NCBI GenBank assembly: GCA_934444645.1
Contig: CAKSCV010000011.1
Location: 2,626-66,625 of the forward strand
Direction: 5' to 3'
Source: an uncultured Eubacteriales bacterium
Lineage (GTDB): Bacteria; Bacillota; Clostridia; Oscillospirales; CAG-382
Length of the DNA stretch: 64,000 bases
The notes beneath the pieces are model-generated. The model was not told the origin of the DNA. It saw only the letters and a program-made list of their open reading frames with translations, and did not search any database. The number at the start of each line of letters is the position of its first letter. Positions within the stretch are counted from its first letter, which is position 1. Both the position numbers and the translations under genes were made by a program. This document shows, piece after piece, positions 1 to 17,680 of this stretch.

Positions 1-116
1 ACGGCGAAAAACGTCTCTTTGACGAATATATTTTGCAAATTTGCACATATATACGGTATATAGCGACTGTCATTAAAATAATATTCATCAAAATTGTTAA
101 ACAACGGGTGAAATTC

Positions 117-145
117 TTGACAATCAGCCGTTTTGGGTGTAAAAT
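117..145 (+). promoter_or_regulatory. Sigma-70-like promoter upstream of galE
   Basis: TTGACA at 117-122, 17-bp spacer, TAAAAT at 140-145, about 70 nt upstream of the galE ATG. Confidence 0.5.
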
Positions 146-213
146 GAAAGCTCAGAGAGAAGAAAACGTGACCGGACATTGCGGCCGGTCTTGCGAAGAA
201 AGGAATGTGTGCT

Positions 214-1230
214 ATGAAGATTCTGTTGACCGGAGGTGCCGGCTATATCGGCAGCCATACCTGTGTGGAGCTGACTGCAAAAGGGTATGATGTGGTCATT
301 GCCGACAATTTTTACAATGCCAATCCCATTGTGATTGACCGCATTGAAGAGATCAGCGGCAAGCGTCCGACCGTATACAACATTGATGTAGCCGATAAGG
401 CAGCGCTTGATAAGCTGTTTACGGAACAAGAAATTGACAGCGTGATCCATTTTGCCGGTTACAAGGCAGTCGGCGAATCGGTACAAAAGCCGATCGAATA
501 TTACCGCAACAACCTCGACACAACGCTGACGCTGTTAGAAGTTATGCGCGCGCACGGCGTGAAGAAGATTGTTTTCAGCTCCTCAGCCACCGTTTACGGC
601 GTACCCGAAACCGTTCCGCTTTGTGAGACCATGCCGACAAAGGGCTGCACGAATCCCTATGGTTGGACAAAATACATGATCGAGCAGATTTTGCGTGACG
701 TAAATGTGGCATATCCGGATATGTCCTGCGTGTTGCTTCGCTATTTCAATCCGGTCGGTGCGCATAAATCAGGCCGTATCGGCGAGGATCCAACCGGCAT
801 TCCCAACAATCTCATGCCGTACATTTCGCAGGTAGCGGTCGGCAAATTAAAGCAGTTATCGGTATTCGGCAACGATTATCCGACGCATGACGGCACGGGT
901 GTGCGTGATTACATTCATGTGGTGGATTTGGCAAAGGGTCACGTCTGCGCCATCGAATATGCGGCAAAGCATACGGGTGCGGAGGTCATCAACCTCGGTA
1001 CGGGCGTCGGCTACAGTGTGCTTGACATGGTCAAAGCTTTTGAAAAAGCCACCGGCAAGGCTGTGCCGTATGTTATTGCGCCGCGGCGTGCGGGCGATGT
1101 GGCGGAATGCTATTCCGATCCGACCAAGGCAAAGGAATTACTCGGTTGGACGGCAGAATACGGCTTAGAGGATATGTGCAAGGACTCTTGGAAATGGCAA
1201 TCGGAGAATCCGAACGGCTATCGTGCATAG
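214..1230 (+). CDS. galE: UDP-glucose 4-epimerase
   Basis: N-terminal Rossmann motif MKILLTGGAGYIGSH. About 338 aa, typical for GalE. The YxxxK region is present. I prefer the ATG at 214 over 205 because the GAAAGGAA RBS spacing fits better. Confidence 0.92.
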   Translation: MKILLTGGAGYIGSHTCVELTAKGYDVVIADNFYNANPIVIDRIEEISGKRPTVYNIDVADKAALDKLFTEQEIDSVIHFAGYKAVGESVQKPIEYYRNNLDTTLTLLEVMRAHGVKKIVFSSSATVYGVPETVPLCETMPTKGCTNPYGWTKYMIEQILRDVNVAYPDMSCVLLRYFNPVGAHKSGRIGEDPTGIPNNLMPYISQVAVGKLKQLSVFGNDYPTHDGTGVRDYIHVVDLAKGHVCAIEYAAKHTGAEVINLGTGVGYSVLDMVKAFEKATGKAVPYVIAPRRAGDVAECYSDPTKAKELLGWTAEYGLEDMCKDSWKWQSENPNGYRA

Positions 1231-1254
1231 AGGGCGCGCGAAGCGCGTTTGAAA

Positions 1255-1286
1255 GGACCGCAACCGGCTTTGGTTGCGGTCCTTTT
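1255..1286 (+). terminator. Rho-independent terminator of galE
   Basis: GGACCGCAACC / GGTTGCGGTCC stem followed by TTTT. Confidence 0.75.
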
Positions 1287-1290
1287 ATGT

Positions 1291-2914
1291 GCCGCCGCAG
1301 GGCGGCGCAAAAGCACACGGAGTGTGCCGTCCCGGCAGGGACACCGCCGCAAGGTGGAAAAAAAGGATTTAATTGGATTGTGCGAATTTTTGGTTTTGTG
1401 CGCTGATTCAAGGTTTGCAGAACCTTGAATCTCCCTTAAAAAGGTTTTAATTGTTGTGGTACGAAGATGTTATTTTGGTGTGCTGATTTGAGGTTTGCGA
1501 ATCTCGAAACTCTCTGCAAAGGGAACGAGTTGTCACTTTTTGCATCGTGCAAAAAGTAACCAAAAAGCACGCGGGACTCCGTCCTGCGACCTCGATTCAA
1601 AGCTCTGCCGGAAAAGATTTTGTAAAGCTTTCCAGCGGCACGTATCGAAACCGGTTTTGCCTGCAAAACGCCGGCGAAAAGGCTTTGAATCGGTGCGAAA
1701 GGGTTACCGTAGTGCAGACGCAAGACTGATGTTTTTCGAAAATGGATTGTTGTACTGCAAGCTCATAGTAGCATGCGGTATTCGAAAAAGGGTTGCTGCA
1801 CGTTAGCTTTGGTGCAGTGCGAAATTGGAGTTTTGCAGTGCTGAAATGAGTTTTTTCTTTATCGGTTTGCTTTGCATGAGCCAAAAAACGCCTTTATCGC
1901 GAATCAAGAAACTTTCATTAGCAGAAAGCCTTACGAACTTCACTCAAAGCCGCTTTTTACGTACAAAAACTTCTTTTGCACGTGCCTTTCTTCGCTGTCC
2001 GCAAAAATTTCCATTTTCATAAACCAAAAGTTTTCCATTTACAGACAGCTTTACGCTTTGCCCTCAAAAGCCTCTCGTTTTCGCAACCAAAACATCGCTC
2101 GTTCGAACAACTTTTTACTGTCCTCAAAAGACGCTTTTTTTACGTACAAAAAGCCTTTTATTCGCACAAAACCTTTTTTATTGCCACCCAAAGCAATCTT
2201 TTTTGCCCTCCGCCTCCCATTTCAACGTCCCTTAACCTACTGTTTGCAAAGAATACAGCTGTTCTTTTGCTGTTCGCTCTAATTTTGTGCTGTAAAACCG
2301 GAACCTCGCACCGATTCAAATCATTGCCGGCGATACCCGGAAAACTGCAGTTTTCTGCGTTGCCGGTTACCTGATGAATGCCGGTCACTTTCGCTTCAAA
2401 AACGTATCGACCGGCGATTTGAATCGAGGTCGCAGGACGGAGTCGTCTCCTTGAAACATGGTCGCCTTGCTCACGTCCGTTCGCAATTCTCCCTGTTTCG
2501 GCGGTCTCCGACGCACAAAAACTTGCCACCGGCAACTTTTTGCACGTCCGAGCATGCTTTTTGGTTACTTTTTGCACGATGCAAAAAGTGACAACCCGTA
2601 TCCCTTTGCAGGGAGTTTCGAGGTTTTGCAAACCTTGATTCAGCTCACCGCAATGGCAGCTTCGCACCGCAACAATTAAAACCTTTGTAAGAGAGCTCCG
2701 AGGTTTTGCAAACCTCAAATCAGCCCGCCGCAGCCACAGCTTCGCACCGCAACAATTAAAACCTTCTTCAGGGAGCTTCGAGGTTCTGCAAACCTCGAAT
2801 CAGCGCACCAAAACAATAACTTCGCACAATCCAATTAAATCCTTTTTTTCCGCCTTGCGGCGGTGTCCCTACCGGGACGGCACACTCCGTGTGCTTTTCG
2901 CCGCCCTCGGCGGC
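1291..2914 (+). repeat. Foldback-like non-coding mosaic element, copy A (1624 bp)
   Basis: Terminal inverted repeat GCCGCCGCAGGGCGGCGCAAAAGCACACGGAGTGTGCCGTCCCGG...GGATTTAATTGG at 1291-1375 pairs with its reverse complement at about 2830-2914. Two left and three right palindromic units (GATTCGAGGTTTGCAAACCTCGAATC type). Core at 1699-2305 lies between TTGAATCGGTGCGA and TCGCACCGATTCAA. Only short, non-conserved ORFs. Confidence 0.9.
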
Positions 2915-3046
2915 TATATCTCTGTTGCTGACGCAACATTTGCCGCCTGCGGCGGCATTTCCCGGCGGCAAAGCCGCCTTTATCCCTTTCCTTTCGGAAA
3001 GCTTTTTCCGAGGTTTATCAAACCGCAGATATTTACGAAAAGCATA

Positions 3047-3075
3047 TTGAAAAAGCAAATAAACTGTGCTATAAT
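3047..3075 (+). promoter_or_regulatory. Near-consensus sigma-70 promoter for the histidine kinase gene
   Basis: TTGAAA at 3047-3052, 17-bp spacer, extended -10 TGcTATAAT at 3067-3075. Confidence 0.6.
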
Positions 3076-3134
3076 ATTATGATAAGAAATCTGCCCCTGT
3101 ACGGTAAAAAGCCACGCAAAGGAGTTTTTGAAAT

Positions 3135-5009
3135 ATGTTCAAATCCAACTTTTCAAGGAATCTCGCTGCCTTTGCCCTTTTAATCTTTCTTTCTTTTTCG
3201 GCTATCACCCTCGTTTCTACCTTTGTTGTCCTCGATAATGCCCGAAACGACCGTATCGCTACATCAAAACGCTTGGCAGATGCCGTGTTCGACGATATTC
3301 ACGACGGCTTAAAAACCTATAATGGCTCGTTTACCTCCACCGTTTTGCGTATCCAAAACCAAATCACCTATTCCGACCGCTTTGCCGCCGTTTTGAATTC
3401 CAATATTTTCATTACCGACAAAAACGGCTTCATCCTATATTCCAGTACCCCCGCCTATCGCAATGCCTTCCGCGTTGAAACGGAAATTTTGAAAAAATAT
3501 ACCTCCTATCCCGGCGAAACTCATTGCAGCACCTTCGGTGGCATTTTTGATTCGGAATACTACATTTCCGCCTTTCCCATCGATAAGGAAAATGCCTCTT
3601 CCCCCGACGACATCTTCGGCATGGTCTTTATCTGCTCGCCTGCGGACAGCGTTATCAACACGGTAAAGCAAATCGTAACTCTCGTTCTTACGGCTCTGTT
3701 CTGGGTGTTCCTTGCCTCTGTTTTGGCCTTGTATTTCATCAGTAAACGCTTAAATGTGCCGCTTATGCGCTTAAAAGACAAATTCTCCGTCTTTTCCTCC
3801 GGCGATTATTCCGTGCGTATGCCGAAAACCGGCGTGACGGAGGTTGACCGGATCGGCGATGCCTTCAACGAAATGGCTACGATTTTGGAGGTAACGGAAA
3901 ATTCGCGCCGCATGTTTTTATGCAACATTTCACACGATCTGCGCACGCCCATGACCAGTATCCAAGGCTTTACGGAAGCGATCTTGGACGGTACCCTGCC
4001 GCCTGAACGGCATCACTATTATCTGGTATTGATCCATAAGGAAATCAAGCGGTTATCCGGCATAGTCAACGAGCTTTTGGATATTTCAAAAATCGAATCG
4101 GGTACCCTGCAGTTGAATAAAAGTGTGTTCGATATATGCGAAATGGTGCGTCTTATCATCATTTCCCTTGAGGAAAAGCTGCTCGCCAAAAATATCGAAT
4201 TTCATTTGGAGGCGCAAAACAGCCATTCCTATGTGCTTGCCGACAAGGATTCGATGTATCAGGTCATATACAATCTTTTGGACAATGCCGCAAAATTTTC
4301 CGACAACAACGGAACCATCCGCGTAACCGTTCTTCCGGAAATGCCCGAAGATACAAGTAAAAATAACACCTCTGAAGCCAAAGAAACAGCCGAAAAATCC
4401 GAAAAACCCGGAAAAGTCTCCAAAACAGACAAAAAGAAGAAAAATGAAGAAAAAGAGGAGGAGATCGGCTCTAAAATTCCGAAATATCGGATTTCCGTCT
4501 ACAATACCGGTATCGGAATCCCGAAGGAAAGCCTTGAGCAGATCTTTGACCGCTTCTATAAAATCGATATGTCGCGCGGCCTTTGCCGCAACGGCTTCGG
4601 ACTCGGCTTATTCATCGTGAAAACCGTCATGGATCAGCACGGCGAACCCATCGAGATTAACAGCTGTGAGGGAAAATACTGCGAATTCGTTTTCTCTCTG
4701 CCGCTTGTTTCAAAGCCAAAAAAAATCGCCTCCTTCGGATTGTCCGATCTGCCGTTAAGCGAAGTGCCGTCAAGCTTTCATTTTACGTCGAAGGAGCTTG
4801 AGGATGCAGAGCTGTACGATTTCAACGATCCTCTGCAGCCGCCGCTGCACGAAAATGCCGACGACCTTGAAATTTCTGTAATCGGTACACCGACTGATAC
4901 ATCCGAAACCTCTGCCGAAGTCTCCGAAACGCCTGCGGAAACAACCGAAACCTCCGAGACACCCGAAACACCGGATGTTTCCGACACCTCCGGCGATGCG
5001 CAAAAATAA
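3135..5009 (+). CDS. Membrane sensor histidine kinase (HAMP-HisKA-HATPase_c) with a low-complexity insertion and an acidic tail
   Basis: H-box FLCNISHDLRTPMTSIQGF, N-box NLLDNAAKF, G-boxes YNTGIGIP and GFGLGLFIVK. Two predicted TM segments. RBS AAAGGAG. Confidence 0.9.
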   Translation: MFKSNFSRNLAAFALLIFLSFSAITLVSTFVVLDNARNDRIATSKRLADAVFDDIHDGLKTYNGSFTSTVLRIQNQITYSDRFAAVLNSNIFITDKNGFILYSSTPAYRNAFRVETEILKKYTSYPGETHCSTFGGIFDSEYYISAFPIDKENASSPDDIFGMVFICSPADSVINTVKQIVTLVLTALFWVFLASVLALYFISKRLNVPLMRLKDKFSVFSSGDYSVRMPKTGVTEVDRIGDAFNEMATILEVTENSRRMFLCNISHDLRTPMTSIQGFTEAILDGTLPPERHHYYLVLIHKEIKRLSGIVNELLDISKIESGTLQLNKSVFDICEMVRLIIISLEEKLLAKNIEFHLEAQNSHSYVLADKDSMYQVIYNLLDNAAKFSDNNGTIRVTVLPEMPEDTSKNNTSEAKETAEKSEKPGKVSKTDKKKKNEEKEEEIGSKIPKYRISVYNTGIGIPKESLEQIFDRFYKIDMSRGLCRNGFGLGLFIVKTVMDQHGEPIEINSCEGKYCEFVFSLPLVSKPKKIASFGLSDLPLSEVPSSFHFTSKELEDAELYDFNDPLQPPLHENADDLEISVIGTPTDTSETSAEVSETPAETTETSETPETPDVSDTSGDAQK

Positions 5010-5064
5010 TGCTTCAAAACGCGTCAGCCGCATCATCAATTACATCAACTGAAGGAAGGATACC

Positions 5065-5694
5065 ATGTCCGATACGCTCTCTTATATTCCGCCGCTCGAA
5101 AATTTAGCCGCCGAATTCCGCAAACTGCCCGGTATCGGACGCAAATCGTCCTACCGGCTGGCCTTTGCCGTACTTGATTTTTCCGAAGCGGAGGCACAAG
5201 CCTTTTCACAGGCAATCTTAGCGGCCAAGCAAAAGGTCATGCGCTGCAAGATCTGCCAGAACATTTCCGATGCCGAGGTCTGCCCGATCTGTGCCGACCG
5301 CAAGCGCAAACAGAATCTCATCTGTGTGGTGGAGGATCCGCGCGACGTGGCAGCCATCGCAAAGCTCGGCGAATACGACGGCGTTTTTCATGTGCTCGGC
5401 GGCCTTATCTCACCGTTAGAGGGCAAAACGCCCGATAAACTCGCCATCAAAGAGCTGCTTACCCGCGTCAACACGCTGCTTGCCAATCAAAACGGCGAAA
5501 CGCCCGAAATCATTCTTGCCACCAATCCAAGCGTTGAGGGCGATGCCACAGCCATGTATCTTGCCCGGCTCATCAAGCCGCTCGGCGCCAAGGTCACACG
5601 CCTTGCCTATGGCATTCCGGTCGGCGGCGATCTCGAATATGCCGACGATGTAACGCTTTCGCGCGCGCTGTCGGGCCGCAACGAAATGGCTTAA
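5065..5694 (+). CDS. recR: Recombination protein RecR
   Basis: LPGIGRKSSYRLAF helix-hairpin-helix, C4 zinc finger CKICQN..CPIC, Toprim region. About 200 aa. Confidence 0.92.
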   Translation: MSDTLSYIPPLENLAAEFRKLPGIGRKSSYRLAFAVLDFSEAEAQAFSQAILAAKQKVMRCKICQNISDAEVCPICADRKRKQNLICVVEDPRDVAAIAKLGEYDGVFHVLGGLISPLEGKTPDKLAIKELLTRVNTLLANQNGETPEIILATNPSVEGDATAMYLARLIKPLGAKVTRLAYGIPVGGDLEYADDVTLSRALSGRNEMA

Positions 5695-5735
5695 CGACTT
5701 TTTGAAAAACGAAAATCAGAAACAGGAGAAACCAA

Positions 5736-7973
5736 ATGCCGGAAAAACGCAAGAAAAAGACAGTCGATCTGTTTGAAAAAGAGCCTGCGCCCATTGCCGA
5801 TGAAGGCATCGTCGAAACGCTCCGCAAAAACTATATGCCCTACGCCATGAGCGTCATCATTTCCCGCGCCATTCCCGAAATCGACGGCTTCAAGCCCTCT
5901 CACCGCAAGCTTTTATACACCATGTACACCATGGGACTTATCCGTGGCAACCGCGTCAAAAGCTCCAACATTGTCGGTGCAACCATGAAGCTCAATCCGC
6001 ACGGCGATGCCGCCATCTATGAAACCATGGTGCGTCTTACGCGCGGCAACGAAGCACTGCTGCATCCGTTTATCGATTCCAAAGGCACCTTCGGCAAGCA
6101 ATATTCCGATATGGCCTATGCCGCACCGCGTTATACCGAAGCAAAGCTTGACGCATTCTGTAACGAGATTTTCGACGGAATCGACCGCGATGCCGTCGAT
6201 TTTCAAGACAACTACGACGGCTCACTCAAAGAGCCGGTGCTTTTGCCGACCTCGTTCCCGAATATTCTCATTTCGCCCAATACCGGCATTGCCGTCGGCA
6301 TGGCGTCCAATATCTGCTCCTTCAACCTTGCCGAAATCTGCGATGCGGTCTGCGAAACCATCGAAAACGGCACCTGCGACTATCTCGAAACCGTCAAAGC
6401 ACCCGATTTTTCGACCGGCGGTCTGCTGTTATACAACCGCGCACAAATGGAGGAAATCTACAAGACCGGCAAAGGCTCTTTCAAGGTGCGCGCCCGTTAC
6501 AGCTATAATAAAAAGGATAACTGCATCGAGGTCACCGAAATTCCCTATACCGCCAAGGTCGAGGCAATTATCGATAAAATTGCGGCGCTTGTCAAGGAAA
6601 AGAAGATCATCGAAATTTCCGATGTACGCGACGAAACAGGTCTTGACGGCTTAAAGATTGCCATCGATCTGAAGCGCGGCGCCGATCCGGAAAAGCTGAT
6701 GAAAAAGCTGTACCGCCTAACGCCGCTTGAGGACAGCTTTGCCTGCAACTTCAATGTGCTCATCGGAGGTTCGCCCAAGACGCTCGGCGTGGGCGATATC
6801 ATCGAAGAATGGATCGCCTGGCGGCGCGAGTGCGTTAAGCGGGAGCTGTTCTTCAACCTTTCCAAAATGCGTGACCGGCTGCATTTGCTTTGCGGTCTTG
6901 AAAAGATTTTACTCGACATTGACAAGGCCATCAAGATCATCCGGGAGACCGAAAAGGATGACCAGGTTCTGCCGAACTTGATGAAAGGCTTTTCCATCGA
7001 TGAGATTCAGGCGGACTATATCGCCAACATCAAGCTGCGCAACCTGAACAAAGAATATATCTTAAAGCAGATCGACGAAAAGACCGATCTGGAAAAGAAG
7101 ATTGCCGAAACCGAAAACATTTTAAAGAGCGATAAAAAGGTCGGCAAGCTCATTGCCGACAAGCTGCGCGACATCAAGAAAAAATATGCCAAGCCGCGCA
7201 AAACCGAAATTTTGTATGAATATGAAGAACACGCCGAACCGATCAAGCAGATCGAAGCTTATCCGGTCGAAGTGATTTTGACTGCCGAAGGCTATTTCAA
7301 GAAAATTCTGCCGCCCAAAACCGCAAATGCCAAGATTGAAGAGCATAATCTCAAAGAGGGCGATACGATCATCAGCTCATGGAATGTACAAAACGATTAC
7401 GATCTGCTGTTCTTCAGCGACATGGGCAACGTGTACAAGGCGAAGATCGATGATTTTGACGCCGTCAAGCCCTCCGCACTCGGCGATTATATTCCGGTAC
7501 GGTTAGATTTTGCCGCAAATGAAAAAACCGTCATGATGATCGCCACCAAAGACTATAAGGGCGAAGCGGTCATCTTCTTTGCAAGCGGCAAGGCCGTGGC
7601 TCTGCCGTTAAATGTCTACGAAACCAAGACCAACCGCAAAAAGCTCACCGGCGGCTACAATACCGATTCGCCGGCGGTCGGCATCTTCTATCTGCCCGAA
7701 CACACCGGACGCGGCTTCCATACGGAATATTTGCTTCATTCGTCGCAAGGCCGTGCCGTCATTCTCAATTCGTCGCAGCTGACACGCAAGGTGACGCGCA
7801 GCTCGACCGGTGCGACCGTCTTTACCCTCAAAAAAGGGCAGGTCATCGATTCTGTACGCGAATTTCACGACGACGGCAGCGAAGCCATGAAAGTGTACGC
7901 CAAATACCGTAAACCAAAACTCCCGAGTGCCGGAACGGTCTTTAACAACGATGAACAGGCAAAACTGTTTTAA
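5736..7973 (+). CDS. Type IIA topoisomerase subunit A (GyrA/ParC-like, short 745-aa form)
   Basis: YMPYAMSVIISRAIPEIDGFKPSHRKLLY motif and catalytic-Tyr region AAPRYTEAKL. Short C-terminal beta-pinwheel region. Confidence 0.85.
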   Translation: MPEKRKKKTVDLFEKEPAPIADEGIVETLRKNYMPYAMSVIISRAIPEIDGFKPSHRKLLYTMYTMGLIRGNRVKSSNIVGATMKLNPHGDAAIYETMVRLTRGNEALLHPFIDSKGTFGKQYSDMAYAAPRYTEAKLDAFCNEIFDGIDRDAVDFQDNYDGSLKEPVLLPTSFPNILISPNTGIAVGMASNICSFNLAEICDAVCETIENGTCDYLETVKAPDFSTGGLLLYNRAQMEEIYKTGKGSFKVRARYSYNKKDNCIEVTEIPYTAKVEAIIDKIAALVKEKKIIEISDVRDETGLDGLKIAIDLKRGADPEKLMKKLYRLTPLEDSFACNFNVLIGGSPKTLGVGDIIEEWIAWRRECVKRELFFNLSKMRDRLHLLCGLEKILLDIDKAIKIIRETEKDDQVLPNLMKGFSIDEIQADYIANIKLRNLNKEYILKQIDEKTDLEKKIAETENILKSDKKVGKLIADKLRDIKKKYAKPRKTEILYEYEEHAEPIKQIEAYPVEVILTAEGYFKKILPPKTANAKIEEHNLKEGDTIISSWNVQNDYDLLFFSDMGNVYKAKIDDFDAVKPSALGDYIPVRLDFAANEKTVMMIATKDYKGEAVIFFASGKAVALPLNVYETKTNRKKLTGGYNTDSPAVGIFYLPEHTGRGFHTEYLLHSSQGRAVILNSSQLTRKVTRSSTGATVFTLKKGQVIDSVREFHDDGSEAMKVYAKYRKPKLPSAGTVFNNDEQAKLF

Positions 7974-8018
7974 CCGTAAAAACAAGCACCGCAAGCCGGC
8001 CGATACGAGGTAAAGCCA

Positions 8019-9500
8019 ATGGATAAAAACACTGAAATACTGCAAAAAATCCACGCCAAACGGCGCAAAAAGCTGTTTCTTTTACGGATGCGCCTACAAT
8101 CTTTTTTCCTGTTTTGCATCTTTTTTGGGATGCTTCTGTGCGGCATTCTTTTTTTCCTTCTTCCGAAAAAAGAGGTCTCCGAAGCCGAACAGCGCAAGCT
8201 TGCCTCCTTTCCGTCTCTAACGCTTCAAACGCTCTGGAGCGGCGATTTCACGTCGGGACTTAACATCTACTATTCCGACAATTTTGTCATGCGCGACGAG
8301 CTTGTCAAAGCGAAATTCGCTTTGGAGGAGCACAAGGGCTTGCGTTTTGACGATGTGAAGATCTACGGCTCGGAAACAGGCGAAACGGCGGAAAACGCCG
8401 CTCAAACGCCGAAAGAGAACCAAAAAACGTGCATTGACGATGTGACGGCGTTCGAAAAAATCACTGCAAACCAACCGAATGTGCCGATGGCTGCCATTGA
8501 TCTTGAAAATCCCTACTATTCCGATCCGAACAAGCATTTCGATTTCAACAAGGCCGATCTTGACGACCGCTTTGCCGACTATATCAATATGGAAAAGGAT
8601 CAGCTTGACGGCGAAAAGCGCGGCAATCTGTTCGTGGTCGGCGATACGGCACTCGAAATCTTCTACGGCAACGAACAGGTCTCCAAGGACTATGCCGCCG
8701 TGTTGAACGCCTATTCCGATGCGCTCGGCGACGGTGTGACCATTTATGACATGATCGTGCCGAACCATTTTGAATTTGGTTTACCGAGCAAATACAAGGG
8801 CAAAATCGGCAAGGACGAAAAGCCGTTTTTGGATCTTGTCAAAGAGAATCTGAACGGAAAAATCGTGTTTGTGGACATCTATGACACACTAAAGACGCAT
8901 TACAACAAGGGCGAATATCTCTATTTCCGCACCGATCACCATTGGACGGGTCTCGGCGCTTACCGTGCCTACGAAAAATTCTGCGAATCAGCCGGTCTTG
9001 CCGCCGTGCCTCTCGATTCCTACGAAAAACGCACCTCAACCGGCTTTTTGGGAACGCTGTACAACAGCTCGCTTGACAAGAATCTTGCCGCAAATCCCGA
9101 CACGGTGGAATATTATGTGACCGATCTTCCGTATGAGCAGACCAACACCAAAAAGGACGGCACGACCTACAAAGGGCGTCTTATCAGCGAATATGCCGAC
9201 GGCCGCACAAACGGCTATTTGACGTTTATGGGCGGCGATATACCGCTTGCGACCATTCGGACGGAAAACACCTCCGGACGGAGCATCATTGTGTTCAAGG
9301 AGTCCTACGGCAACGCGTTCATTCCGTTTTTGGTGCCGCATTATGACACGGTCTATGTGGCGGACATCCGGTCATTCCCGTACAATGCGGTGACGTTTAT
9401 ACAGAACAATCATATCGGCGAGGTTTTGTTCTTAAACAACATTATGACCTCGAACACATCGGCGCGTGTGGCGAACATTTTAGAGCTTCTGCGGAAATAG
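8019..9500 (+). CDS. DHHW-motif protein (AlgX/AlgJ-like SGNH-fold, putative O-acetylation accessory protein)
   Basis: N-terminal TM segment and the signature YFRTDHHWTGLGAY. Confidence 0.75.
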   Translation: MDKNTEILQKIHAKRRKKLFLLRMRLQSFFLFCIFFGMLLCGILFFLLPKKEVSEAEQRKLASFPSLTLQTLWSGDFTSGLNIYYSDNFVMRDELVKAKFALEEHKGLRFDDVKIYGSETGETAENAAQTPKENQKTCIDDVTAFEKITANQPNVPMAAIDLENPYYSDPNKHFDFNKADLDDRFADYINMEKDQLDGEKRGNLFVVGDTALEIFYGNEQVSKDYAAVLNAYSDALGDGVTIYDMIVPNHFEFGLPSKYKGKIGKDEKPFLDLVKENLNGKIVFVDIYDTLKTHYNKGEYLYFRTDHHWTGLGAYRAYEKFCESAGLAAVPLDSYEKRTSTGFLGTLYNSSLDKNLAANPDTVEYYVTDLPYEQTNTKKDGTTYKGRLISEYADGRTNGYLTFMGGDIPLATIRTENTSGRSIIVFKESYGNAFIPFLVPHYDTVYVADIRSFPYNAVTFIQNNHIGEVLFLNNIMTSNTSARVANILELLRK

Positions 9501-9518
9501 CGAAGGAGCCGGAAAACG

Positions 9519-9669
9519 TTTTCCACAGACATAACAAGGACTTTTCAACCGGGTGTTGAAAATAAGCGGAAAAATTTTCCACAGGCAATCCCCCGATCTT
9601 CAACAGGTTTTCCACAGAAGAGATGGACGCATTTTGGCTTGGTTATGGGGGTTGCGGACTTTTCCACAG
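9519..9669 (+). promoter_or_regulatory. Cluster of four identical TTTTCCACAG 10-mers (DnaA-box-like, TT[A/T]TNCACA)
   Basis: Exact copies start at 9519, 9575, 9608 and 9660, all in the same orientation. The first two are embedded in the palindromes GGAAAACGTTTTCC and GGAAAAATTTTCC. An AT-rich stretch follows at about 9680-9730. Confidence 0.45.
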
Positions 9670-9737
9670 TTTCAACACCCCCTACTACTACTATACTCCT
9701 ATAATAAGAATAAATGTATAGGATATATCACGCAAAG

Positions 9738-11150
9738 TTGCCGCGAAGCGGCGAGCCGAATCGAGGTTTGGAAAACCTCGGAAAAACGCTTTCCGAAAGG
9801 AAAGTGTTAAAGGCGGCGGAGCCGCCGAAAGATTGCCGCCGTAAGGCGGAAAAAGGATTTAATTGGACTGTGCGAAGTTGTTGTTTGGGTGCGCTGATTC
9901 GAGGTTTGCAGAACCTCGAAACTCCCTGCAAAGGGGACGTTTTTACATTCTTTTTGCGTCGTGCAAAAAGAATCAAAAAGCACGCCAGAGGTTTGCGAAC
10001 CTCTGGACTCCGGGGAACGATTCAAAGCTCTGTCAGAAGCAATTTTGCAAAGTTTTCCGGCGGCTTCTGCCGAAACCGGGTTTGTCCGCAAAACGCCGGC
10101 GTAAAGGCTTTGAATCGGTGCGAAAGGGTTACCGTAGTGCAGACGCAAGACGGATGTTTTTCGAAAAAGAGTTATTGTACTGCAAGCTTACAGCAGCAAG
10201 TGCTATTCTAAAAGGGTTGCTGCACGTTAGTTTGGGTGCGGTGGAAAATTGAAATTTTAGTATGCTGAAAAATACTTTTCTTTATCAGGTGGTTTTGCAT
10301 GAGCTGAAAAAACAGCCCTTTTCCGCAAAACAAAAGGTTTTCGTTTACAGAAAGCTTTACGCTTTGCCCTCAAAAACCGCTCGTTTTCGCAACCAAAACA
10401 CCGCTTGTTCGAACAACTTTTTACTGTTCTCAAAAGCCGCCTTTTTTACGTACAAAAAGCCTTTTATTCGCACAAACCTTTACTTATTCCCACCCAAAAC
10501 AACTTTTTTCCACCCTCCACCTCCCATTCGCACCACCCTTAACCTACTGTCCACAAAAGAATACAGCTGTTCTTTTAATCTTTGCTCTAACTCCTTACGC
10601 TGTAAAGCCGGAACGTCGCACCGATTCAAATCATTGCCGGCGATACCCGAAACATTACAGTTTTTCGCTTAGCCGGTTACCTGATGAACGCCGGTTCTTT
10701 TAACAATAATTACGTATCGACCGGCGATTTGAATCGTGGGTCGCAGGGCTTCGCCGACTCCTTGAAACATGGTCGCCTTGCTCACGTCCGTTCGCAATTC
10801 TCCCTGTTTCGGCGGTCTCCGACGCACAAAAACTTGCCACCGGCAACTTTTTGTACGTCCGAGCATGTGCTTTTTGGTTACTTTTTGCACAACGCAAAAA
10901 GTGACAACCCGTACTCCCTCGCAGGGAGCTTCGAGGTTCTGCAAACCTCGAATCAGCCCACAAAACAACAAATTCGTGCAATCTAATTAAATCCTGCCGG
11001 GAACTTTTCCCTACTTTTTATAGGGCACAAAAAGTAGACCAAAAAAGCTTTTGCCCCTATCGGGGCAGCACGCCTTGCGTGCAAAAACTCCCTTTCGGGA
11101 GCTTCGAGGTTCTGCAAACCTCAAAGCAGCTCGCCGCAGCCGCGGCTTCG
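9738..11150 (+). repeat. Foldback-like non-coding mosaic element, copy B (about 1.41 kb)
   Basis: Same module order as copy A. Core at 10124-10615 lies between TTGAATCGGTGCGA (10110-10123) and TCGCACCGATTCAA (10616-10629). An extra outer arm extends to 11150. Confidence 0.9.
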
Positions 11151-11191
11151 TATATAATAAATTTTTTCGCAAACTTGAAAAGGAGATTCTC

Positions 11192-12886
11192 ATGGAAAAA
11201 AATACCCTCGTCTATGATGTGCGCCCCATCTCTACCATCCGCGAACTCATCGAAACCAGTGCCGATGAATTCAAAAACCGCACCGCGTTCGTCTTGAAAG
11301 ACAACGATAAACTCTATGAAAAACGCTATCATGACGTCCTTGAGGACGTGAAAAATCTTTCAACTTTCTTAAATGCCCGCGGCTTTGAAGGCAAACGCGT
11401 GGCTGTCATCGGCAAAAATTCCTATAACTGGGCACTCACCTACCTTGCCGTCACCAGCGGTACCGGCGTAATCGTCCCCATCGATAAAGATCTCAAGGCT
11501 CCCGAAATTACCAATATTTTAACACTTTCCGAGGCAAGCGCCGTCCTCTTTTCGCCTGAGCTTGCTTCTACTGTTGCTTCTATCGATCTGCCGCTCGAAA
11601 AGCTCCCTATGGCCGATATGAATACCTATCTTGCCGAGGGTTCAACCCTTCGCATCGGCGGTGATATGTCCTATGAAAAGCACGTTATCGACCCATATGC
11701 CCTCGGCGTTCTCATTTATACCTCCGGTACGACGGGTATTGCCAAAGGTGTTATGCTCAGTCAATATAATATCTGTTCGGACATCGTCGCTGTTCTTAAA
11801 CAGGTTAAAATCACGCCTGAGGACAGAACTCTCTCGGTTCTTCCGCTTCATCATACCTATGAAAGCATGGCAGGATTTTTGAGTATACTGTATTCCGGCG
11901 CAAGCATTGCCTATATGACAAGCCTTACGCATTTGCTTGCCGATTTCCGCGAATATCAGCCCACCATTTTCATTGCCGTGCCGCTTCTTTTGAAAACCGT
12001 GCATAGCGGTATTATCAAAAAAATAAAGGCTGTGCCCGGCGGCAGTGCCTATCTTGTGGTCGGCAAGGCCATTACCACGCTGTCCGGAGCATTTTCCTAT
12101 CAGGTTGCCTCCAAAGTATTTGCAAACATTCATGCGGCTTTCGGCGGCAAATTAAAGACCATTCTCTGCGGTGCTGCGGCGCTTGATCCGGCAATTTTCA
12201 GGGATTTTCAAAAGCTTGGCTTTCATATGATGTGCGGCTATGGACTTACCGAAACGTCGCCGATCTGCGTCATGCACAGCGATCATGTCATCAAGCCCGG
12301 CACGGTGGGCTTGCCCATTTGCGGCTCAAAAGCGAAAATTCTCGATCCGAACGATGAGGGCATCGGCGAGCTTGCCGTTAAAGGTCCAAACGTGATGCTC
12401 GGTTACTATAAAAATCCCGAAGCTACGGCGGAGGCTTTTACGGCGGATGGTTATTTCCGCACGGGTGATCTTGCCAAAATCGATCCGGCAAGCGGTCATT
12501 ATATCATAACCGGCCGTATCAAGAACATGATTGTCATCGGCAACGGCAAAAAGGTTTTTCCGGAGGAAATCGAATATTTGCTCGAAAAATGTGATGGAGT
12601 GAAAGAATGCATGGCTTACGGACACGTCGATGAAGAGGGATATGTGACGGTGGCTGTGAAGATCTTTCCGGATTTTGATTATCTGAAGAAGCAAGGCATT
12701 GAAACGGAAGGCGAAAACGCGAAAAAGGCGCTCGAAGAGTATTTCCGCACGGTTGTCAAGGAAAAGGTTAACCGGAATCTGCCCGGCTATAAAGCGGTAC
12801 GCAAAATAACGCTGCGCTATCGCGAATTTGACAAGACCACCACCAAGAAGATTCGCCGCAATTCGGCGGACAACATGGAGGAATAA
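11192..12886 (+). CDS. AMP-dependent acyl-CoA synthetase/ligase (long-chain fatty acid-CoA ligase-like)
   Basis: AMP-binding motif LIYTSGTTGIAKGV, and GYGLTETS, GDL and GRIKNMI motifs. The ATG at 11192 follows the RBS AAAGGAG. The longer ORF from 11051 runs into the repeat element. Confidence 0.88.
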   Translation: MEKNTLVYDVRPISTIRELIETSADEFKNRTAFVLKDNDKLYEKRYHDVLEDVKNLSTFLNARGFEGKRVAVIGKNSYNWALTYLAVTSGTGVIVPIDKDLKAPEITNILTLSEASAVLFSPELASTVASIDLPLEKLPMADMNTYLAEGSTLRIGGDMSYEKHVIDPYALGVLIYTSGTTGIAKGVMLSQYNICSDIVAVLKQVKITPEDRTLSVLPLHHTYESMAGFLSILYSGASIAYMTSLTHLLADFREYQPTIFIAVPLLLKTVHSGIIKKIKAVPGGSAYLVVGKAITTLSGAFSYQVASKVFANIHAAFGGKLKTILCGAAALDPAIFRDFQKLGFHMMCGYGLTETSPICVMHSDHVIKPGTVGLPICGSKAKILDPNDEGIGELAVKGPNVMLGYYKNPEATAEAFTADGYFRTGDLAKIDPASGHYIITGRIKNMIVIGNGKKVFPEEIEYLLEKCDGVKECMAYGHVDEEGYVTVAVKIFPDFDYLKKQGIETEGENAKKALEEYFRTVVKEKVNRNLPGYKAVRKITLRYREFDKTTTKKIRRNSADNMEE

Positions 12887-12900
12887 TCTATATTGTTGTT

Positions 12901-14146
12901 TGTGGGAGTTCGAGGTTTGCAAAACCTCGGAACTCCCTGCCCCGACAGGGGCAAACTTTCCGAAAGGAAAGTTTCAAAGTTTTTTGCCCTACTTTTTGTA
13001 TTTTACAAAAAGTAGGAAAAATCCGCCGAGGGCGGCAAAAGGATTTAATTGGTTTTGTGTGAAGCTGTAATCTTCGTGTGCTGATTCGAGGTTTGCGAAA
13101 CCTCGGGATTCCCTTTGGAAAAGGATTTAATTGTTGCGGTACGAAGCTGCGGCTGCGGTGTGCTGATTCGAGGTTTGCAGAACCTCGAAACTCCCTGCAA
13201 AGGGACGTTTTTCGTGCTTTTCGCTTGTACGAAAAGAACCAAAAGTACACCAGAGGTTTGCGAACCTCTGGACTCCGGGGAGCGATTCAAATCTCCGCTC
13301 GATACATGACTTTTGCTAAATTGACCGGCCATCATCATGTAACCGGCCGCGCCGGGAACCGCAAGGTTTCCGGGTATCGCCGGGGAGGATTTGAATCGGT
13401 GCGAAAGGGTGGCTGTAGTGCTGACGCAAGACTGATGTTTTTCGAAAATGGATTGTTGTACTGCAAGCTTACAGTAAGTTATCGCGGATAAAATCTGTGA
13501 CTGCGTGTTAGCTTTAGTGCAGTGGGAGATTGGATTTTCCTGTGCTGAAAAAAGCTTTTCTTTATCGGATAGCTTTGCATGAGCCGAAAAAACAGCCCTT
13601 TTTCGCAAACCAAAAGGTTTTCTTTTGCAGAAAACTTTTTAACCGTACTTGAAAGTCAGCTGTTTTTACAAACTAAAAAGCTTTTCTTCTGCACAAACCT
13701 TTCCTTTTTCCCACCCAAAATAACTCTTTTTTGCCCTCCGTTGCCCGTTCCAACCACCCTTAACCTACTGTTTGCAAAGAATGCGGCTGTTCTTTTGCTG
13801 TTCGCTTTAATTTTGTGCTGTAAAGTCTGAGCGTCGCACCGATTCAAAGCCTTTTCGCCGGCGTTTTGCAGGCAAAACCGGTTTCGACATGAGCCGCCGG
13901 AAAGCTTTACAAAATCTTTTCCGGCAGAGCTTTGAATCGTCCCCGGAGTCCAGAGGTTCGCAAACCTCTGGCGTGCTTTTTGGTTCTTTTTGCACGACGC
14001 AAAAAGAACGTAAAAACGTCCCCTTTGCAGAGAACATCGAGGTTCCGCAAGCCTCGATTCAGCCCGCCGCAGCCGCAGCTTCGCACCGCAACAATTAAAA
14101 CCTTTCAAGGAAGCTTCGAGGTTCCGCAAACCTCGAATCAGCCCAC
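12901..14146 (+). repeat. Foldback-like non-coding mosaic element, copy C (about 1.25 kb), core flipped relative to arms
   Basis: Core at 13405-13833 is in the same orientation as in A, B and D, but the arm modules either side are exchanged and inverted (Y' on the left, X' on the right). Bounding inverted repeats at 13391-13404 and 13834-13847. Confidence 0.88.
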
Positions 14147-14201
14147 CCAAATTGCCTTTCCAAAAAAACACCAAAAAAATATATAAAAAGAGGTGCAACC
14201 T

Positions 14202-15314
14202 ATGAAGAACAAGTACGATGTCGCCGCCTATATCTGGCCGAGCTATACCGGCGACGAGCCGAGAACACGCATCTTTTGGCCGGAGGGCTACGGCGAATGG
14301 CAGACCGTCAAGGCCGCTATGCCAAAATTTCCCGGACACAAGTGGCCGCGCAAACCGCTGTGGGGCTATGTCAACGAGGCTGACCCATATGTCATGGAAA
14401 TGCAGATAAACGCTGCCGCCGACCATGGCGTCAATGTGTTTATCTACGATTGGTATTGGTTCGATAACCGCCCGTTCCTCGAACAGTGCCTGGATAACGG
14501 CTACTTAAAGGCTAAGAACAACGACCGCGTCAAATTCTATATCATGTGGGCAAATCATACCGCGACCACGCTTTGGGATAAACGCACCGCACATCTTGAT
14601 GTGCCGATCTGGGATCACGGCGCAAGTCCCGAAATGTTCAAAACCATCTGTGAACGCATGATTGACCAGTATTTCTTACATCCGTCCTATTATAAAATCG
14701 ACGGCAAGCCGGTCTTTATGTTCCACGATTTGTGCAACTTTCTCTACGGTATCGGCGGCATTGAAAACGCGAAACGCGCTTTGTACGATTTCCAGAATAT
14801 GGCCATCAAAGCCGGTCTTCCCGGCGTCCATATTCAAGATTGCTTGCGCGGTGCAGACACCATGAAATACCGTGACCCGGCACTCGGCTTTGACGGCAGT
14901 ATGGCGGATGCGGTCGATCTTCTCGGCTTTGACAGCACTACACACTACCAGTTCTGCGGCGTAGTCGACATCAAGCGTTCCTACCCTGAAGCGCTTGCCG
15001 ATATGGTCAAAGAATGGGATAAAACGCGCGAAAGCTACAAAGCGCCCTATTTTCCCCATGTGTCGCTCGGCTGGGACACCAATCCGCGCTTTGAAACGGT
15101 ACGTGACGATATTCTCACCGACTGCACGCCGGAGAATATCAAAAAAGCGTTTATCGAAGCCAAAAAATACATTGATGCCCATCCGGAGCTGCCTGTTCCG
15201 CTTGTGGTGGTCAACAGCTGGAACGAATGGACTGAAACCAGTTATTTCGAACCGGATGATTTGTATGGCTATGGCTATTTAAACGCCTGCAAGGAAGTCT
15301 TTTTAGGAAAATAA
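14202..15314 (+). CDS. WbsX-like / GH99-like domain protein, paralog 1
   Basis: Family-typical NVFIYDWYWF and NSWNEWTETSY motifs. No signal peptide. The ATG at 14202 has better RBS spacing than the GTG at 14193. Confidence 0.8.
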   Translation: MKNKYDVAAYIWPSYTGDEPRTRIFWPEGYGEWQTVKAAMPKFPGHKWPRKPLWGYVNEADPYVMEMQINAAADHGVNVFIYDWYWFDNRPFLEQCLDNGYLKAKNNDRVKFYIMWANHTATTLWDKRTAHLDVPIWDHGASPEMFKTICERMIDQYFLHPSYYKIDGKPVFMFHDLCNFLYGIGGIENAKRALYDFQNMAIKAGLPGVHIQDCLRGADTMKYRDPALGFDGSMADAVDLLGFDSTTHYQFCGVVDIKRSYPEALADMVKEWDKTRESYKAPYFPHVSLGWDTNPRFETVRDDILTDCTPENIKKAFIEAKKYIDAHPELPVPLVVVNSWNEWTETSYFEPDDLYGYGYLNACKEVFLGK

Positions 15315-15354
15315 CTGTTTTTACGGATAAAACAACAGAAAGAGGAAGAGAATT

Positions 15355-16464
15355 ATGGCAAAAAAATATGATGTCGCCGCCTTTATTTGGCCGAGCTACA
15401 CCGGCGACGAACCGCGCACGCGCATTTTTTGGCCGGAGGGTTACGGCGAATGGCAGACCGTCAAGGCGATGAAACCGTTTTATCCGGGTCATACCTGGCC
15501 GCGTAAGCCGCTTTGGGGCTATGTCAACGAGGCCGACCCGTATGTCATGGAAATGCAGATAAACGCCGCCGCCGACCATGGCGTTAACGTCTTTATCTAT
15601 GACTGGTATTGGTTCGACAACCGCCCGTTCCTTGAGCAGTGCCTTGATAATGGCTACTTAAAGGCCAAGAATAACGACCGCGTCAAGTTTTACATCATGT
15701 GGGCCAACCACACCGCAACCTCCATTTGGGACAAGCGTACCGCCGAGATGAACTATCCGATCTGGGACGGTGCCGTGAACCGTGCCGCTTTTGAAACGGT
15801 AGTTCGCCGCACCATCGACATGTATTTCTCGCATCCGTCGTATTACAAGATCGACGGCAAGCCGGTGTACATGATTTATGATCTCGGCAACCTGATTCGC
15901 GGTCTCGGCGGCATTGAAAACACCAAACGTGCGCTCGATTGGTTCCGTGAAGAAACCGTCAAAGCCGGTTTTCCGGGACTGGAACTGCAATTGACGCTTC
16001 GCAGTGAGCGTGCTATGAATGTGACCGGTCTTGACCCGAAATTTGAGGGCAACATGACGGCGGCGGTGCACGCGCTCGAATTTGACAGCGTAACACACTA
16101 TCAGTTTGTTCACATTACGCCCATGGCGCGCAAGTATACAGACATTCTTGCCGATATCGAAAAGGAATGGGCGTATATTGACCGCACGTTCAAGATGCCG
16201 TATTATCCGCACATTTCGGTAGGCTGGGATTCCAGTCCGCGCTACAATTCCGACCGGCATGATGCGTGCCTTGAAAACACGCCGGAAAACGTGAAGAAGG
16301 GCTTTGAAATGGCAAAGGCGTATATCGATGCGCACAAGAATCTGAAAGCACCGCTTGTCACGGTCAACAGCTGGAACGAATGGACGGAAACAAGTTATCT
16401 GGAGCCGGACGATTTTTACGGGTACGGATATTTGGAAGCCATTCGCGAGGTGTTCGGAAAATAA
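15355..16464 (+). CDS. WbsX-like / GH99-like domain protein, paralog 2 (tandem duplicate)
   Basis: Collinear with 14202-15314. It shares a 73-aa identical block (PRKPLWGYVNEADPYVMEMQ...IMWANHTAT). RBS AGAGGAAGAG. Confidence 0.8.
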   Translation: MAKKYDVAAFIWPSYTGDEPRTRIFWPEGYGEWQTVKAMKPFYPGHTWPRKPLWGYVNEADPYVMEMQINAAADHGVNVFIYDWYWFDNRPFLEQCLDNGYLKAKNNDRVKFYIMWANHTATSIWDKRTAEMNYPIWDGAVNRAAFETVVRRTIDMYFSHPSYYKIDGKPVYMIYDLGNLIRGLGGIENTKRALDWFREETVKAGFPGLELQLTLRSERAMNVTGLDPKFEGNMTAAVHALEFDSVTHYQFVHITPMARKYTDILADIEKEWAYIDRTFKMPYYPHISVGWDSSPRYNSDRHDACLENTPENVKKGFEMAKAYIDAHKNLKAPLVTVNSWNEWTETSYLEPDDFYGYGYLEAIREVFGK

Positions 16465-16465
16465 A

Positions 16466-16497: not shown

Positions 16498-16500
16498 GCA

Positions 16501-17664: not shown

Positions 17665-17680
17665 AAAACCGCAATCATTT

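Follow-up and report, generated by a model that had tools for sequence, protein, structure and literature searches.

Repetitive extragenic palindromic (REP) units of bacteria are 20-40 bp long and carry a GTAG or CGTC tag, and bacterial interspersed mosaic elements (BIMEs) are without a large conserved core. Some REP sequences are mobilized in trans by a single-copy hairpin-binding transposase (RAYT). For REP/BIME and for the mosaic elements of Neisseria, roles in termination, mRNA stability, and supercoiling have been proposed. The pneumococcal BOX element is organized as boxA-boxB(n)-boxC, spans about 100-400 bp, and has its variable module in the middle. REP families have been reviewed (PMC3733652, PMC2817692). 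[quoted passage not shown] The eukaryotic element Galileo of Drosophila has arms of strongly variable length and structure, and its copies exchange sequence (PMC3573991). Here we report on a family of kilobase-sized foldback-type repeats without genes, five copies of which lie in a stretch of 64,000 nucleotides (hereafter the window) of contig CAKSCV010000011.1 (positions 2,626 to 66,625 of the forward strand; assembly GCA_934444645.1) from an uncultured Eubacteriales bacterium (Clostridia; Oscillospirales; CAG-382). We interpret it, at a probability of about one half, as an old, lineage-restricted, non-coding foldback/mosaic repeat family that has dispersed through intergenic DNA and today changes by recombination of arm with arm and of copy with copy.

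Comparison with described elements

A preliminary description of this DNA, made from the letters of the window alone, likened the repeat to eukaryotic Foldback elements and saw no bacterial equivalent. The likeness in layout holds. Inverted arms of tandem sub-repeats, a non-palindromic middle, many copies without a transposase, unstable arms, and exchange between copies are all shared with Foldback/Galileo (PMC3573991). By contrast, BIME/REP, the Neisseria mosaic elements, BOX, and the BrickBuilt MITE are relatives in kind, and the element is thus a variant of bacterial mosaic repeats rather than one without any bacterial equivalent. A counterpart of the same size and layout was found neither in Rfam, nor in the plasmid and phage collections, nor in the literature searched. 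Foldback and Galileo are eukaryotic, their autonomous copies encode a transposase (of the P superfamily in Galileo), and recent transposition has been seen, whereas neither an autonomous nor a young copy nor a clear target duplication was found here. The arms described here are also arrays of different self-folding hairpins rather than of one unit, and the middle is conserved and non-coding. Compared with Foldback-type elements as a class, the arms are likewise built of tandem units (80 bp, one to three per arm), but copies bearing a transposase are missing. Compared with MITEs, the repeat has terminal inverted repeats (81-94% complementary blocks) and an interior free of transposase, but at 1.15-1.73 kb the five copies exceed the small size, usually well below 1 kb, of such elements.

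Like BOX, the element is a modular, non-coding, intergenic repeat with a variable number of tandem modules and with complementary ends, so that the whole folds back. Unlike BOX, it has variable units in both arms, measures 1.15-1.7 kb, and contains a conserved, oriented core of 430-610 bp. With REP/BIME and the Neisseria mosaic/Correia elements, it shares the character of an intergenic mosaic of short palindromic units in fixed relative orientations, with hairpins kept by compensatory change; it differs from REP/BIME in having at least five module types in a fixed mirrored order together with a core, and its hairpin modules are of several kinds and measure 16-30 bp. BrickBuilt is similarly species-restricted, always intergenic, and free of open reading frames (ORFs), with tandem repeats within, and it differs in its small inverted-repeat ends, its central 23-nt minisatellite, and its promoter activity (PMC4596501). 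In the repeat studied here, the inverted arms extend over 300-600 bp and contain tandem 80-bp units, and no promoter consensus was found. Invertons, too, consist of a segment of a few hundred bp between short perfect inverted repeats and occur at many gut-bacterial loci, partly by surface-polysaccharide genes. Here, by comparison, neither a promoter within the segment nor an invertase close by was found, highly identical contigs showed no polymorphism of orientation, and the short repeats are the innermost part of the long arms. We conclude that the element is a bacterial interspersed palindromic/mosaic repeat, unusual in its kilobase size, in the mirroring of at least five module types along its arms, and in its conserved, oriented core. 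The family shows that bacteria can carry kilobase-sized, gene-less foldback-type repeats in which the small hairpins persist through compensatory change and the interior is shuffled among copies.

Architecture and copies

The five copies, named A to E (Table 1), amount to about 6.9 kb, or about 11% of the window, and all of them are intergenic; between copies B and C there is just one gene, for an AMP-dependent ligase. In an independent metagenome, a 14.3-kb contig corresponds to window positions 2460-16796 at 100% and 99.98% identity and spans B and C whole, and further contigs reproduce parts of copies A and E. Based on these independent matches, the sequence is no assembly artefact.

Table 1. 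Parts of copy A and extent of the five copies (positions in the window)
Feature	Position	Strand	Evidence or remarks
Cluster of four short, G+C-rich hairpins at the left end (including GCCGCC-GCAG-GGCGGC)	1291-1359	.	-39.6 kcal/mol, z -3.9; mirrored at 2840-2914 (94%)
Two units of ~80 bp, outer of GGATTTAATTGG type, inner of GGTTTTAATTG type	1360-1525	+	Profile matches, motif search, hairpin pair counts (143 distinct units)
Left inner module: H1 (CTTTTTGCA-TCG-TGCAAAAAG), A-rich linker with GCACG pairing the H1 loop, GGGAC-TCC-GTCC	1532-1590	+	Profile match 1532-1605; compensatory changes
Module X: self-folding branched hairpin of ~108 nt, closed by CGATTCAAAGC/GCTTTGAATCG	1591-1698	+	-38.2 kcal/mol, z -2.8
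Core, conserved 5' block of ~190 nt (ACGCAAGA, TTTCGAAAA, CTGCAAGCT, CTGCACGTTAG, TTGGTGCGGTG); sets core orientation	1699-1889	+	21-copy alignment; 146 profile matches
Core, variable G-depleted segment with degenerate CAAAAG sub-repeats of ~21/42/63 nt	1890-2204	+	Composition, tract autocorrelation, direct repeats spaced 63 + 60, indels between copies
Core, conserved 3' block of ~100 nt (CCCTCC..., CCCTTAACCTACTGT, AAAGAATACAGCTGTTCTTT, GCTGTAAA)	2205-2305	+	Profile matches in all five copies
Module Y: self-folding hairpin of ~120 nt, alternative to X	2306-2428	+	-48.4 kcal/mol, z -4.9
Right inner module, mirror of 1532-1590, split by the 107-bp module Z (2445-2551)	2429-2592	-	
Three units of ~80 bp, mirror of the left units	2603-2839	-	Tandem Repeats Finder period 80; one unit deleted in L024
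Right terminal hairpin cluster (to 2914) and more family hairpins	2840-3024	.	Self-similarity interval 1291-3024
Copy A	1291-3024		Core 1699-2305, 607 bp; between galE terminator (1252-1285) and near-consensus promoter (3047-3075)
Copy B	9765-11161	+	Core 10124-10615, 492 bp; one unit per arm; module Z
Copy C	12893-14159	+	Core 13405-13833, 429 bp; Y inverted on the left, X inverted on the right (core flipped relative to X/Y)
Copy D	16521-17675	+	Core 16859-17350, 492 bp; between convergent genes
Copy E	49188-50522	-	Core 49557-50155, 599 bp; between divergent promoters of guaA and a metallo-beta-lactamase-fold gene

The arms of copy A are complementary in blocks of 90 nt (1309-1398/2809-2898, 94%), 115 nt (1387-1501/2705-2819, 83%), 55 nt (1518-1572/2552-2606, 91%), 48 nt (1575-1622/2397-2444, 81%), and 27 nt (1672-1698/2306-2332, 81%), and by BLAST the left arm matches the right arm at 87% identity over 235 nt (E=2e-74). 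Tandem Repeats Finder reports 2.6 copies of a period of 80 at 2619-2827 in the right arm, and a profile search resolves two left-arm units (1369-1441, 1446-1522) and three right-arm units (2603-2680, 2685-2760, 2765-2839). The unit motif GGTTTTAATTGTTGCGGTGCGAAG has 9 matches in the window compared with 0 expected, the palindrome CTTTTTGCAnnnTGCAAAAAG (at 1536-1556 and 2568-2588) has 10 compared with 0.01, and GACTCCGTCCTGCGAC (at 1575 and 2429) has 4 compared with 0.02. The preliminary description had thus given the mirrored ends, the number of tandem units on either side, and the two hairpins that it named nearly to the base, and the long complementarity of the arms that it had read by eye is confirmed. 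The extent that it assigned to copy A, 1291-2914, is accurate in its coordinates, but the repeat runs on to about 2985-3024, with the hairpins GCCGCCTGCGGCGGC at 2942, GGCGGCAAAGCCGCC at 2964, and CTTTCCTTTCGGAAAG at 2986 and a degenerate unit hairpin at 3007. An end module, TTCCCGGCGGC-NNNG-CCGCC, is also present in copies B and E and in L047 (L numbers denote metagenome or relative contigs compared with the window). Copies A, B, and C have lone arm-unit hairpins of the TTCGAGGTTTGCAAACCTCGAA type directly beyond their main bodies (11084-11150, 9748-9783, 12909-12940, and 3007-3030). The ends of the element are therefore ragged and not sharply defined.

From outside to inside, an arm consists of short G+C-rich hairpins, one to three units of about 80 bp, an inner module, and either X or Y. 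Each unit begins with the conserved GGTTTTAATTG..GCGGTGCGAAG, continues with a stretch of 14-15 nt that falls into few classes, and ends with the hairpins TTCGAGGTT-TGCA-AACCTCGAA and CCCT-GCAA-AGGG. The inner module, of about 85 nt, comprises the hairpin H1 followed by a linker rich in A and by a second hairpin, which is either of type CCAGAGGTT-TGCG-AACCTCTGG or of type GGGAC-TCC-GTCC. It is present once per side in each of the five copies, always pointing inward, and nowhere else in the window.

Modules X and Y were initially taken to mark the place where the symmetry of the two arms breaks down. Both modules exist, X on the left and Y on the right of copy A, but they are interchangeable alternatives that can stand on either side. 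Each is a self-complementary hairpin of 105-120 nt bounded by CGATTCAAA...TTTGAATCG. The arrangements seen are X-core-Y, inverted-Y-core-inverted-X (copy C), and inverted-Y-core-Y; module X is present on either side of the core in other copies, and copy C, like several copies of the species UMGS882 (see below), has an inverted Y on the left side of its core. Module Z, by comparison, is a 107-bp insert in the right arm that within the window is confined to copies A (2445-2551) and B (10750-10866). It contains TTGCCACCGGCAA with flanking T-runs on both strands and, judged from this layout, resembles a bidirectional terminator. Module Z is also present at locus A in the strain type represented by L024.

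The core is abutted in all five copies by the perfect 15-bp inverted repeat TTTGAATCGGTGCGA/TCGCACCGATTCAAA, which in copy A forms the 3' end of X (1684-1698) and the beginning of Y (2306-2320), and the positions of this repeat reproduce exactly the five core lengths given earlier (607, 492, 429, 492, and 599 bp for copies A to E). As had been proposed, the core is asymmetric and contains CAAAAG sub-repeats. It is not so much T-rich as depleted in G, with 10-11% G, 29-32% C, 29-33% T, and 27-31% A in the variable segment, which lies between two conserved blocks and shows a phasing of its A and T tracts of about 21 nt. Besides the core itself, the arm units and the junction of arm and core contain the motif GGTGCGAA. 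An alignment of 21 copies from at least four species contains 46 invariant columns in the 5' block, of which the first 19 served as the search pattern and are to be discounted, and the invariant stretches adjoin blocks that are less than 50% identical.

Protein coding in the core was considered and rejected. Every copy has an ORF on the G-poor strand, but not in the same frame from copy to copy; A and E, for instance, are put out of frame with each other by a 1-nt indel. Indels in the conserved parts are not multiples of three. In copy E, a short ORF (MFFENGLLYCKL...) is without its ATG, and the sister species does not have this ORF. The core ORFs are by-products of G depletion.

Folding and conservation

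Folded as single strands, whole copies are much more stable than their dinucleotide shuffles (z -9 to -31) and form 117-288 long-range pairs, and the potential to form a cruciform or a long duplex, to which the preliminary description had drawn attention, is therefore real. This thermodynamic strength is not accompanied by an excess of compensatory changes between the arms. In 23 elements the arms are 81% complementary, and the 880 mismatches comprise 202 of G-U type, 194 of A-C type, and 484 (55%) that are unpairable. Evolution does not maintain the arm-to-arm duplex of about 400 bp, and because G-U and A-C mismatches are symmetric, no RNA strand can be named for it.

Compensatory pairs beyond controls, which we did not find for the long duplex or the 5' block, are present in the local hairpins and in a helix between the H1 loop and a segment downstream of it. 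Among 57 non-redundant inner modules, 93.5% of the cells of H1 and the second hairpin are paired compared with 38-60% with slid partners, 59 cells carry double changes, and covariation is 0.177 compared with 0.072, a level reached in 0 of 500 shuffles. At the two innermost stem pairs of the second hairpin, we observed TT:AA, GT:AC, GC:GC, TC:GA, CT:AG, and GG:CC. The H1 loop pairs with a segment located about 10-15 nt downstream of H1 (94.5% paired, compared with 0-42% when slid), and one pair of this helix is either A-U (33) or G-C (23) and never unpaired. The predicted topology is that of an H-type pseudoknot with an A-rich crossing loop or, alternatively, that of a second possible hairpin. 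On account of this helix, a palindromic protein-binding site is an insufficient explanation of the inner module.

Local single-strand hairpins are thus preserved, either by selection or by a process that corrects palindromes; template-switch 'palindrome correction' could mimic selection on hairpins. Many of the compensatory changes were inherited by sub-families, so that independent events are few. Counts taken over copies are phylogenetically non-independent. Loops of the UNCG type were considered as an RNA signature of the second hairpin and set aside as not decisive, the loops being mostly TGCG or CGCG with non-canonical closing pairs.

Distribution and change between strains

An exact 18-mer of the core was found at 12 loci, mostly at contig ends, of one GTDB species representative, 'uncultured Clostridiales bacterium UMGS882', and elsewhere only as single chance matches. 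A slightly degenerate 19-mer of the core is present in at least 120 metagenome contigs, and among the matches listed most are labelled human gut. A core profile search of about 1.25 Mb of contigs from at least four related species returned 146 matches at no fewer than 106 distinct loci. All of these copy counts are lower bounds, because metagenome contigs break at the repeats. The plasmid and phage collections gave zero matches to the repeat. Four matches in viral contigs were dismissed as chance, as they lack the core profile and lie inside a giant ORF. The nearest labelled relatives of proteins encoded in the window come from a 'Clostridiales bacterium' (parC, 78%) and an 'Oscillospiraceae bacterium' (AMP-ligase, 57%). 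The family is restricted to a small clade of uncultured human-gut Clostridiales. In practical terms, the repeats break short-read assemblies at nearly every copy, which is a cause of fragmented genomes and possibly of chimeric joins.

More distant members are found in two relatives. L044, from a sister species (AMP-ligase 88%), contains strongly diverged members in which inner module, X/Y-like hairpin, inverted repeat, and core follow one another as they do in the window, and in which the outer hairpins are different ones. In L177, from the relative with 78% parC identity, modules of H1 and the second hairpin form tandem direct arrays (12843-13903 and 17887-19061) with a different G-poor spacer, and core profiles give no match to these arrays. 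The inner hairpin module is kept in both relatives while the outer hairpins or the core differ, and is thus the most widely conserved piece of the element. Near the arrays, L177 also carries an IS30-type transposase gene (5887-6975).

Filled and empty sites were compared between the window, L047 (the "91% species"), L044 (the "88% species"), and L177. The spacer between the AMP-ligase and WbsX genes, which is the site of copy C, is filled in the window (1.3 kb) and in L047 (1.4 kb) and consists in L044 of 23 nt with the ribosome-binding site only. Upstream of the AMP-ligase gene, at the site of copy B, the window is filled and both L047 and L044 are empty; neither of these two sites was seen in L177. 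The other two sites lie outside the window. Between the response regulator and RNase HII genes, L047 is empty (47 bp) and L044 filled (1,022 bp), with L177 not comparable, and between the peptidase M19 and threonine synthase genes, L047 and L044 are filled, the latter with its core in the opposite orientation, and L177 is empty (36 bp). Insertion polymorphism, suggested earlier as a check, is thus evident in precise empty sites of sister species where others are filled. Where present, the elements occupy the whole spacer, from just past a stop codon to just before a ribosome-binding site.

Strains of the same species differ in the interior of the copies. At locus A, a second strain type has flanks of 98.4-100% identity and identical outer arms. 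It lacks one 80-bp unit (L024), contains a 65-bp patch of dense substitutions (1461-1525) and an extra inner arm, and has the interior between the 27-bp perfect repeat GACTCCGTCCTGCGACCTCGATTCAAA (1575-1601/2418-2444) inverted and about 80% identical. As this interior matches no copy of the window above about 80%, it represents a replacement by another family member and not a flip. At locus E, a relative with genes of 95.8% identity has an element of about 71% identity, a replaced copy (L179), and another with genes of 91.9% identity has a clearly orthologous copy (L178). Across loci, pairwise identities of the 5' core block have their mode at 75-85%, with the best at about 95%. The picture is one of an old family without recent bursts that is reshaped by recombination between its own arms and between copies.

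Origin and possible functions

In the reading that we favor, the family would have spread as non-autonomous DNA by means of an enzyme, encoded elsewhere, that recognized the hairpin modules as single strands. The interior would be flipped by recombination between the inverted arms and replaced by recombination between copies, and these two processes may now dominate the evolution of the family. Transcripts that enter a copy from neighboring genes would pass into arms that fold into a battery of stable hairpins. If the modules are recognized as single-stranded DNA, then the repeats point to a mobilizing enzyme yet to be found. The family also offers a concrete system for addressing how such DNA persists in deletion-biased genomes.

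Other observations bear on this reading, several of them against it. No partner enzyme turned up in the window or in the sampled flanks. The window contains neither a transposase gene nor an intact recombinase gene, its sole related ORF being a zinc-ribbon fragment (23475-24098), and no RAYT (Y1 transposase) was seen in the window or the sampled flanks. Among 1,075 ORFs in the approximately 1.25 Mb flanking the copies, there is no recurrent neighbor of transposase type, and only ABC ATPases, MatE, and WbsX recur. An ORF-bearing middle, as expected of an autonomous copy, was found at 0 of 106 loci. For target-site duplications, which the preliminary description had proposed to check, three filled/empty comparisons between species gave none that is consistent, the flanks being too diverged for a firm call, and the sole candidate is CTGTAAG on both sides of one L044 site, where the flanks are diverged as well. 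The outermost ends differ between copies, and the outer modules vary in number and kind without defined termini. Pairwise comparison across loci revealed no near-identical copies (96-99.5% identity) at different loci, and current transposition is therefore not shown. Finally, elements of 1.2-1.7 kb persist to about 20% divergence in genomes that normally lose useless DNA, and between the window and L178, with its orthologous copy, identity is 93% for the 3' core block and 91% for module Y, compared with 81% for the 5' block, 82% for one arm, and 80.5% for 4-fold sites (688 sites), module X being replaced in L178. This single orthologous pair hints at possible constraint on the 3' core block and Y, and together with the long persistence it would suggest constraint beyond selfish persistence.

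The main rival, which we consider somewhat unlikely, is that the copies act in cis for the host as bidirectional transcript boundaries, in which the hairpins protect 3' ends or terminate transcription and in one orientation are followed by a G-poor stretch similar to a Rho-loading region. In every copy the arms point inward, and copies A, D, and E are placed, respectively, between a terminator and the next promoter, between convergent genes, and between divergent promoters. The variable core maintains its low G and a C content of about 30% over 180-360 nt, and we infer that this composition fits an unstructured C-rich RNA, for example, a Rho-loading region. The hint of constraint on the 3' core block and Y and the long persistence without young copies would equally be accounted for. 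Other evidence is two-sided. With genes taken as simple long-ORF calls, core and upstream gene share one direction at 46 of 72 loci (p=0.024), but this bias is weak, and in tandem gene contexts 14 co-oriented versus 6 anti-oriented cores are not significant. On the inward-reading strand of the unit hairpin, about 77 mismatches are of G-U type and 25 of A-C type, but a few inherited variants are behind this excess, and the inner module and the whole arms show no such strand preference. Terminator-like sites are in excess in copy B (9 compared with 2.9 expected) but not in copy A (3 compared with 3.5). Moreover, copy C is situated inside what is an operon junction in the sister species, with the downstream genes intact, and sister species manage without an element at the same sites. 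Should the batteries of hairpins and the G-poor core act on transcripts after all, then the repeat would amount to a boundary element that is modular, works in both directions, and has a new design.

It is unlikely, in our estimation, that the inner module and the oriented core are the working parts of a new structure-acting element, in which folded RNA or single-stranded DNA directs its own copying or recombination, or in which more than 100 host sites partition transcription or organize the nucleoid. If true, then this would constitute a class of bacterial repeat without a described counterpart, beyond a large MITE.

We regard it as quite improbable that the core, perhaps together with the inner modules, forms a gene family for a large non-coding RNA, with the arms as processing or protective structures. 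The invariance of core blocks across species would fit such genes, as would the compensatory changes in the inner-module hairpins and in the loop-to-downstream helix with its possible H-type pseudoknot topology, and a variable hairpin within the 5' block keeps its stem while its sequence changes. However, a consensus fold is only weakly predicted for the 5' block (-5.9 kcal/mol, zero compensated pairs; single-sequence z -1.2 and -0.6 on the two strands), and conservation of this block thus looks sequence-based. No sigma-70 promoter was found in or beside the cores of copies A and B and none is conserved in the element, the strong promoter at 3047-3075 being outside copy A. At the gathering score, Rfam matches in the window are limited to a transfer-messenger RNA (tmRNA) at 18859-19208, with none in the repeat copies, and permissive scans of copies A to C gave sub-threshold noise only. 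In addition, the length of the core varies by whole sub-repeats, and L177 keeps inner modules in direct arrays that core profiles do not match.

There is similarly little chance that the copies are merely decaying, functionless, and inactive remnants of an extinct transposon. Identities of 75-85% between copies without young pairs, the ragged ends, and the failure to find a transposase are all compatible with decay. Against this, compensatory changes keep the hairpins paired, invariant blocks stand beside blocks of less than 50% identity, and the 3' core block and Y exceed the identity of 4-fold sites. Strains of one species also differ by recent unit loss, conversion, and replacement, indicating that this DNA is still actively reshaped.

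An invertible phase-variation switch, in which a site-specific recombinase flips the core between the 15-bp inverted repeats and thereby alters the expression of neighbors, is very improbable: such a switch would explain the perfect repeat at all five cores, the core flipped relative to X/Y in copy C and many others, the opposite interior in two strains at locus A and opposite core between two species at the M19/threonine synthase site, and the surface-polysaccharide neighbors (galE, two WbsX glycosyltransferases, and a DHHW/AlgX-like protein), but no pair of contigs at or above 95% identity among 176 differs by a simple inversion (assemblies collapse minority orientations), the inverted interior at locus A is a replacement, the cores of A and B lack a sigma-70 consensus promoter, the only recombinase relic in the window is the zinc-ribbon fragment, and other neighbors are housekeeping genes (guaA, parC, recR).

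Other features of the window

The best sub-threshold Rfam match in the repeats is c-di-GMP-I-GGC at 12941-13031, in the outer hairpins of copy C (25 bits compared with a gathering score of 59, E=0.009), a match that a run of hairpins has most likely produced by chance. The DnaA-box-type sequence TTTTCCACA occurs four times on one strand within 150 bp (9519-9668), in the stretch that separates the DHHW gene from copy B. No other match to TTWTCCACA is present in the window, where 1.2 are expected, and the four sites are interspersed with TTCAAC repeats. In L177, the DHHW gene is followed by dnaN. Judged from its motifs, the cluster could be a remnant of a replication origin or a DnaA-regulated site.

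The tmRNA gene (168 bits) is followed by genes for a Mor-family regulator (19640-20059) and a SHOCT/bacterial-PH protein (20101-21342) and then by the recombinase zinc-ribbon fragment; the region 18859-24098 has the appearance of an island that integrated at ssrA and whose integrase has decayed. Genes for cell-surface glycans are abundant in the window (WbsX genes, galE, and the DHHW/AlgX-like gene). These include two tandem paralogous WbsX-type glycosyltransferases (14193-16464) and a 1,613-aa S-layer-homology protein with a WbsX domain (24544-29385).

Compared with window positions 1-3135, the galE contig L025 has galE and the element joined to two sugar-binding-protein genes instead of the histidine kinase gene. 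Some joins in metagenome contigs may be chimeric, and this one reflects either a rearrangement through the repeat or a chimeric assembly. Upstream of galE, the contigs L024-L029 of the second strain type carry a truncated feoB of 433 aa compared with 707 aa in L030. The truncated gene abuts an insertion, probably a prophage or an integrative element, that encodes a 550-aa large serine recombinase and small ORFs.

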